Shown: piece after piece, positions 45,755 to 45,832 of the stretch
How positions within the stretch are numbered: position 1 is the first letter of the stretch
Layout of the letters: each line of letters starts with the position of its first letter
Origin: Escherichia coli
GTDB taxonomy: Bacteria > Pseudomonadota > Gammaproteobacteria > Enterobacterales > Enterobacteriaceae
Length of the DNA stretch: 64,000 nt
Strand: one strand, 5' to 3'
Assembly: GCF_013122565.1 (NCBI RefSeq)
Contig: NZ_CP053258.1
Notes under the pieces: generated by a model
Database searches by the model: none
What the model was told of the DNA's origin: nothing
Seen by the model: only the letters and a program-made list of their open reading frames with translations
Program-made: the position numbers and the translations under genes

Positions 45755-45766
45755 AACCTCCCTACA

Positions 45767-45804
45767 CCGGGGTACTGCATTTTTTTTGTAGTACCCCGTA
45801 TAAT
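45767..45804 (+). promoter_or_regulatory. Inverted repeat plus TATAAT -10 hexamer upstream of menF
   Basis: CCGGGGTACT ... AGTACCCCG flanks a T-run and is followed at once by GTATAAT about 30 bp before the menF start. Confidence 0.4.
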
Positions 45805-45832
45805 GTGAGGCTTTTAACAGGGAGAGGTCCGC

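Follow-up and report, generated by a model that had tools for sequence, protein, structure and literature searches.

Intrinsic terminators with imperfect U-tracts combine a stable G+C-rich hairpin with a weak RNA:DNA hybrid, leave the RNA 3' end at the foot of the hairpin and act with partial efficiency; the 3' ends of intrinsic terminators usually lie 7-9 nt from the stem. Some sigma-70 promoters pair a consensus -10 hexamer with a poor -35 element. At tandem junctions in which a terminator abuts a co-directional promoter, the two elements lie within one polymerase footprint, and either occlusion of the promoter or reinitiation by a polymerase that is retained on the DNA after terminating has been described (Kang 2020, PMC6978380; Harden 2020, PMC6978322; PNAS 2023, PMC10372574), with direct reuse of the terminated polymerase at the abutting promoter seen in single-molecule work. 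RBS-sequestering intercistronic structures carry a CCUCC-like segment complementary to the downstream Shine-Dalgarno sequence, and RNase III signals of the phage T7 R1.1 type are built of two stacked helices with an internal loop, the RNA end lying on the 3' side of that loop.

The gap between elaB and menF in Escherichia coli has something of each of these systems. It has the stable G+C-rich hairpin, the weak hybrid, the 3' end at the hairpin foot and the partial efficiency of an imperfect intrinsic terminator, but its tail (UAUAAUGU) holds no U run, its T run lies in the hairpin loop, its 3' end lies 4 and not 7-9 nt from the stem, and its factor independence is something that we infer. Like other promoters dominated by the -10 element, it combines a perfect TATAAT, retained across genera, with a start 8 nt downstream; unlike them, it has a terminator palindrome occupying the DNA of its -35 and spacer, and its initiating base is T. 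The terminator and the co-directional promoter lie within one polymerase footprint, but here, in contrast to junctions where the two merely abut, they share bases, the 3' end falling inside the -10 hexamer, and any occlusion or reinitiation is putative. A CCUCC-like segment complementary to the menF Shine-Dalgarno sequence shows compensatory changes across genera, as in sequestering structures; unlike those, it can pair in read-through RNA only, as menF's own promoter lies between the two strands, the pairing is weak and non-preferred in E. coli, and the distance from the upstream stop codon is unconserved. The likeness to R1.1-type signals is one of structure only. We propose, with reasonable confidence, that the gap is a compact bifunctional junction: a leaky elaB terminator whose tail is the menF -10 hexamer. 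This conserved gene junction is of a familiar, rather ordinary type. Both of its end points, the elaB 3' end and the menF start, are already present in published genome-wide tables, and our literature search found no published account of the elaB-menF overlap, its conservation or the outer helix described below.

The window analysed here is a stretch of 64,000 nt of E. coli DNA, and all positions refer to it and to its plus strand unless stated otherwise. According to the list of open reading frames and the RefSeq annotation of matching E. coli genomes, elaB (101 aa) occupies positions 45449-45754, with its TAA stop codon at 45752-45754, and menF (431 aa, GTG start), the first gene of the menFDHBCE cluster, occupies 45833-47128. 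The 78 nt that lie between the elaB stop codon and the menF GTG correspond exactly to 45755-45832. The stretch was matched in 5421 of the 5426 complete E. coli genomes. K-12 MG1655 is identical to the window from 45740 to 45845 and carries the locus on its minus strand, so that a K-12 coordinate is obtained as 2426476 minus the window position. The 201 bases from 45700 to 45900 have an exact match in none of the 5426 complete genomes, the best reaching 99.5%; because the 45740-45845 interval is identical to K-12, the single difference must fall in the coding flanks of this segment.

The inverted repeat that the first-pass annotation placed around a run of T residues is real and exceeds what chance would give. 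Its left arm (CGGGGTACTGCA, 45768-45779) and right arm (TGTAGTACCCCG, 45787-45798), found by repeat search and by folding, are 12 nt each, 92% complementary with one G.T pair, and separated by 7 nt. The perfect core, CGGGGTACT/AGTACCCCG, gives 9 bp, and the stem continues inward through G.U, C-G and A-U pairs to a total of 12 bp, six of them G-C, which makes the stable G+C-rich stem-loop of an intrinsic terminator. The T8 run at 45780-45787 supplies the loop, in which seven U residues (45780-45786) remain unpaired and the last T pairs with A45779. As RNA with a short tail, the hairpin is predicted at -21.9 kcal/mol, compared with -6.7 +/- 2.4 in shuffled sequences (z -6.3; 0 of 200 as good). 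Some details of the earlier description need correction: the C at 45767, which had been counted as the first base of the left arm, is without a pairing partner, and the menF GTG, said to follow the TATAAT hexamer immediately, is separated from it by 28 nt. The hexamer itself does come directly after the repeat, as had been described, and begins at the base next to the stem (45799-45804). Other hairpin-type repeats that do not overlap and that have arms of 11 nt or more with loops of up to 12 nt are very scarce in the 64 kb. A repeated element of the REP/BIME kind was ruled out, as the hairpin 31-mer is unique in the window even at three mismatches and, in the fetched loci, no copy of the arm motif lies outside the elaB-menF junction. 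A LexA-like box (TACTG...CAGTA) was also rejected, the spacing being wrong by inspection (CTG-N11-TAG here, 9 to 12 in relatives). No known RNA family was matched when 45300-46100 was compared with Rfam at E values up to 10.

That the hairpin serves as the elaB terminator, as the first-pass annotation had suggested, is supported by two published datasets. Term-seq lists the dominant, 'primary' elaB 3' end at K-12 coordinate 2380674 on the minus strand in three entries (Adams et al. 2021, eLife, PMC7815308, Supplementary file 1), and SMRT-Cappable-seq gives the same 3' end, 2380674, for transcripts that begin at the elaA start (Yan et al. 2018, PMC6131387, Supplementary Data 1), where it was flagged 'novelTTS' against RegulonDB. 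This coordinate corresponds to window position 45802, the second A of TATAAT, 4 nt past the stem; the mapped 3' end of both elaB and elaA-elaB RNA thus lies at the 3' foot of the hairpin in vivo. Scores of 54111.6 and 221851 accompany two of the three Term-seq entries (PMC7815308). Judging by position in the file, the three entries would represent three growth conditions and the two scores LB at OD 0.4 and LB at OD 2.0, and on that reading the score of the elaB 3' end would be about 4-fold higher in the late-growth LB sample.

Termination at this site is leaky. Among 30 reads from the elaA start (2381565, window 44911), 10 stop at the site, 16 continue for 50 nt or more past it (median extension, 199 nt) and none end within 50 nt beyond the site (PMC6131387); read-through thus accounts for 16 of the 26 informative reads, and passing is more frequent than stopping. 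An elaA-elaB-menF read-through unit was reported in the same study (Yan 2018, PMC6131387). The tail UAUAAUGU contains four U residues in 8 nt and no run, which falls short of the five or so U residues per 8 nt after the stem that mark a U-tract, and a terminator scan did not flag the main hairpin. The T run was ruled out as the U-tract of a terminator, as it forms the loop of the 12-bp hairpin and no 3' end has been reported there. We infer that termination independent of factors gives rise to the elaB 3' end. There is no elaB or menF entry among the Rho termination regions of Adams 2021 (Supplementary file 2, PMC7815308), which, as absence from a list, is weak evidence.

The promoter half of the junction likewise agrees with published mapping. 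Transcripts covering menF-menD and menF-menD-menH begin at 2380664 on the K-12 minus strand, as determined by capping of 5'-triphosphate ends (Yan 2018, PMC6131387, Supplementary Data 2). This start corresponds to window position 45812, 8 nt after TATAAT and 10 nt past the elaB 3' end, and gives a 21-nt leader. The hexamer at 45799-45804, which as RNA (UAUAAU) forms the A/U-rich tail of the elaB terminator, is identified as the menF -10 element by its sequence, its conservation and the mapped start: it matches the sigma-70 consensus at six of six positions, and in one published dataset the 5' end falls within the 6-9 nt that separate a sigma-70 -10 element from its start. The -35 is poor, the best match to TTGACA at 16-18 bp spacing being two of six (TGCATT or CTGCAT, by inspection) in DNA covered by the left arm, with the right arm in the spacer. 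Since the -35 matches at most 2 of 6 positions, a promoter scan found no sigma-70-like site at the gap. There is no TG extension, the mapped initiating base, T, is unusual, and the supplements of the 2016 Cappable-seq study hold no entry for the menF start. As a check of the coordinate convention, the elaA start from the same source coincides with an A that has a C before it and a TAGTAT box 6 nt upstream. These data uphold the earlier proposal of a menF promoter overlapping the terminator, with the start at 45812 and the elaB 3' end inside the -10 hexamer; the menF start does not lie far upstream, and read-through from elaB is partial (16 of 26 reads) and not full. The menF Shine-Dalgarno region (AGGGAGAGGU, 45819-45828), 5-14 nt before the GTG, contains an invariant GG-G and is unpaired in the promoter-derived leader.

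The arrangement is conserved well beyond E. coli. An ElaB protein scan, taking one genome per species, gave 80 loci, 47 of which have menF directly downstream, and 36 of these 47 elaB-menF loci carry the module of hairpin and TATAAT. The genera include Escherichia, Citrobacter, Salmonella, Enterobacter, Lelliottia, Leclercia, Silvania, Phytobacter, Kosakonia, Pluralibacter, Yokenella, Trabulsiella and others. With a covariance model, 36 strong matches of 54-102 bits were obtained, all of them at the elaB-menF junction. Invariant in 32 aligned species are GGTACT in the left arm, ACCC in the right arm, TATA-T, a TTT, the G residues of the Shine-Dalgarno sequence and the GTG. The outer 8 bp of the stem never vary and therefore give no covariation signal; we explain their constancy by the two roles that they would play, in the RNA stem and in the promoter DNA. 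The innermost stem pair does vary (U.G, A-U, C-G, U-A), as does the pair two positions out (G-C, G.U, C-G), and loops differ in length as well as in sequence, even among Escherichia species. Paired cells amount to 80.6%, against 37-52% with the partner columns slid. RNAalifold run on a MAFFT alignment did not recover the main hairpin, because the loops and the C-rich segment shift the register, and structures were compared instead through a hand-given structure, covariance-model alignment and per-species duplex energies.

TATAAT is retained at the elaB-menF junction not only in the genera that have the hairpin but also in several that are more distant. In more distant genera that do not have the GGTAC hairpin, a canonical hairpin followed by T9 is found, with TATAAT about 15 nt later (Enterobacter sp. 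R1; Cedecea is alike by eye). A comparison of these sequences suggests that the T run of E. coli is probably the relic U-tract of an older hairpin-plus-T9 terminator, now enclosed within a newer and stronger hairpin. In locus L011 (1829-1864), a scan placed the canonical hairpin and T9 about 15 nt before the conserved ...CCACGTATAAT, and the left arm of this hairpin (CUUACC) could also pair with the Shine-Dalgarno sequence of the locus itself (GGUGAG). In L057 and L012, a hairpin and T9 are recognisable at the junction by eye, and the scan reported none on the plus strand. In Yokenella regensburgei (L062, about 1875-1900), and in no other species, the -10 region and the menF Shine-Dalgarno sequence are separated by an additional perfect hairpin, GAACCTGCCTCAGGCAGGTTC. 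In 33 of the 80 ElaB loci (for example L015 and L019-L024, with many from Pantoea and Erwinia and some from Enterobacter), there is no menF within 1.5 kb downstream; these are either paralogues or instances of a different gene order.

Upstream of the hairpin, a C-rich segment (GUUAAAACCUCCCU, 45750-45763) forms, in folds and in homologues, the 5' strand of an outer helix. One part of it, ACCUCCCU (45756-45763), is complementary to the menF Shine-Dalgarno sequence, and an overlapping part, GUUAAAACCUCC (45750-45761), is complementary to 45805-45818. A segment of this type (CUCCCU) lies just 5' of the hairpin in at least 30 species and is mutated in two Escherichia species. Its position is fixed relative to the hairpin and not to the elaB stop codon, from which it is separated by about 2 to about 45 nt across species. 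Outer-helix duplexes were found in 29 of the 29 species examined, with 5-17 bp and predicted energies of -7.6 to -26.8 kcal/mol. Cognate duplexes averaged -18.8 kcal/mol versus -16.0 for non-cognate combinations, with 0 of 20000 permutations as good, a test inflated by the fact that species relatedness is ignored. Column by column, covariation of the outer helix is modest (6 pairs, 14 cells), and compensatory changes accompany the conservation of the anti-Shine-Dalgarno segment in relatives: AACC:GGUU alternates with GACC:GGUC, Phytobacter has CCCCUCCC:GGGAGGGG, Leclercia CUUCUCCC:GGGAGAAG and Pluralibacter CUCCCCCG:CGGGGGAG, and in Salmonella an unpaired A is gone from both strands.

In predicted folds of the read-through RNA, the Shine-Dalgarno sequence of most non-Escherichia genera pairs with the 5' segment with probabilities of 0.6-1.0; the promoter-derived RNA leaves it more open. 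As the menF promoter lies between the two strands, the outer helix is possible only in read-through RNA, and it is likely, on the strength of these folds, to keep such RNA from making MenF in most Enterobacteriaceae. The case is weak in E. coli itself. There, the predicted Shine-Dalgarno pairing alone comprises 8 bp with a bulge (-11.5 kcal/mol, shuffle p 0.09), and within a context of +/-30 nt its ensemble probability is 0.09, as another helix wins. With its flanks, the preferred E. coli fold pairs GUUAAAACCUCC with 45805-45818 and leaves the Shine-Dalgarno sequence mostly free; the 3' strand of this preferred helix, GUGAGGCUUUUAAC (45805-45818), spans the menF start and appears in two minimum-energy folds, that of 45735-45860 and that with the +/-30 nt context. 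A ribosome stopping at the elaB UAA could reach the 5' strand of either helix in E. coli, and translational coupling is conceivable on this model. The last elaB codons (GCACGC, within 45738-45748) are also complementary to the menF start region (GCGUGC, including the GTG, within 45831-45841); this pairing is predicted in read-through RNA, is missing by eye from other genera and is probably due to chance.

These observations suggest the following working of the junction. In RNA coming from the elaA and elaB promoters, the 12-bp G+C-rich hairpin at 45768-45798 would form, and the weak A/U-rich RNA:DNA hybrid UAUAAUGU behind it would stop a fraction of the RNA polymerases, leaving an elaB mRNA whose 3' end, at 45802, is protected by the hairpin. 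At the DNA level, this A/T-rich tail would act as the perfect -10 element of a menF promoter that is without a recognisable -35 and fires at 45812, and the resulting menFDH... mRNA would have a short, unstructured leader of 21 nt and an open Shine-Dalgarno sequence. Read-through RNA would carry the C-rich segment, which in most Enterobacteriaceae may pair with the menF Shine-Dalgarno sequence and start region and block MenF translation; in E. coli, the segment would pair mainly with 45805-45818, and the Shine-Dalgarno sequence is predicted to stay largely free. Since the tail must stay TATAAT, a U run is not possible there, which probably explains why the terminator is leaky. We consider it doubtful that the polymerases releasing elaB RNA at 45802 reinitiate on the menF -10 element without leaving the DNA while the anti-Shine-Dalgarno clamp silences the read-through RNA. 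If reinitiation did occur, stationary-phase elaB transcription would be linked to transcription of the menaquinone operon; together with a clamp that is strong in most Enterobacteriaceae and decaying in Escherichia, it would mean that MenF output comes from reinitiated and not from read-through transcripts.

Other explanations of the junction have to be weighed against the leaky terminator with a shared tail. With just 4 nt between it and the stem, the 3' end at 45802 could be a trimmed or processed end, left when 3'-to-5' exonucleases degrade the RNA back to a stable hairpin after transcription has stopped downstream in menF, by Rho or otherwise; the hairpin would then be a stability element only. 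Such trimming would agree with the missing U-tract and with the majority of reads passing the site at a median extension of 199 nt, and, according to Adams et al. 2021 (PMC7815308), many Term-seq ends are processing products. However, intermediates are not seen, as the 50 nt past the site contain no read ends, elaB and menF are missing from the listed Rho termination regions, and an A/U-rich tail behind a strong hairpin is enough for partial intrinsic termination; we therefore regard trimming as rather unlikely. Cleavage of the read-through RNA by RNase III would also place an end here. In E. coli, the hairpin and the outer helix are predicted to stack into about 24 bp around a 6x6 internal loop (CUACAC/UAUAAU), the extended structure reaching -46.7 kcal/mol (z -3.5), and 45802 lies inside this loop, on its 3' side. 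Yet elaB and menF are not named in the text of the RNase III target paper, and in other genera the register of the outer helix differs while the hairpin and the -10 element are fixed; we take cleavage in this predicted loop to be very unlikely.

The same bases might instead serve mainly as a DNA operator, with a dimeric regulator binding GGGTACTG...CAGTACCC and controlling menaquinone synthesis. The site would cover about -44 to -14 from the menF start, across the -35 and the spacer of a promoter that has no -35 and may need help, and in the outer 8 bp of the two arms no genus shows a change, compensatory or otherwise. We know of no regulator motif that matches the palindrome. The spacing of the half-sites varies from 18 to 20 nt, though, the inner stem changes in sequence and yet keeps its complementarity, an RNA 3' end maps to the foot of the stem, and the dual constraints of RNA and promoter already account for the invariance; an operator as the main function is thus improbable. 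The suggestion of an attenuator, made in the first-pass annotation, holds in the weak sense that the terminator is leaky, and fails for a regulated switch. Such an attenuator or riboswitch would let a pairing between the C-rich segment and the left arm (45756-45773), together with the U run, compete with the hairpin, so that a signal or elaB translation sets the read-through. The terminator scan does flag a 5-bp stem at 45756-45773 followed by the T run, and RNAalifold chooses the same short pairing, but this alternative hairpin is predicted at only -5.2 kcal/mol (z -0.1) against -21.9 for the main hairpin, there is no Rfam match at E values up to 10, and no 3' end is reported in the T run. 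Moreover, the menF-specific start lies downstream of the hairpin, which is contained in elaA/elaB read-through RNA only, and the segment has no fixed distance from the elaB stop codon (about 2 to about 45 nt, depending on the species). We give regulated attenuation hardly any credence.

Under the bifunctional arrangement that we prefer, two signals would occupy the same bases, the -10 box doubling as the weak-hybrid tail of the preceding terminator, at the cost of a leaky stop; the sharing would explain why elaA-elaB-menF read-through transcripts coexist with menF-specific ones. Replacement of the tail by TTTTTTTT is predicted to strengthen termination and to abolish the promoter. The junction therefore offers a natural test case for the terminator efficiency that is lost when a tail must remain a promoter element, for the reuse of an abutting promoter by terminated polymerase in vivo, and for the silencing of read-through RNA translation by an anti-Shine-Dalgarno segment located upstream of an internal promoter. 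It also adds to annotation a terminator that was absent from RegulonDB in 2018.

Several further elements were observed in the neighbourhood of the junction. The elaA start (2381565 on the K-12 minus strand, window 44911, plus) and the divergent rbn start (2381581 on the K-12 plus strand, window 44895, minus) lie 16 bp apart (Yan 2018, PMC6131387). Common to both is TAGTATA (44900-44906), which reads TAGTAT on one strand and TATACT on the other and looks like a symmetric bidirectional promoter. Within the elaA-elaB gap, about 35 nt before the elaB ATG, TTGTCTATAGT (45406-45416) resembles a -10 element of the sigma-S type (CTATACT, with an upstream C); judged by its sequence, this box would fit the assignment of the higher Term-seq score to the late-growth sample. 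Further upstream, at 42491-42524, a perfect inverted repeat whose 15-nt arms enclose a loop of 4 nt (TTCGACCAGTCAGCA/TGCTGACTGGTCGAA) is the longest perfect hairpin-type repeat among the window matches listed.
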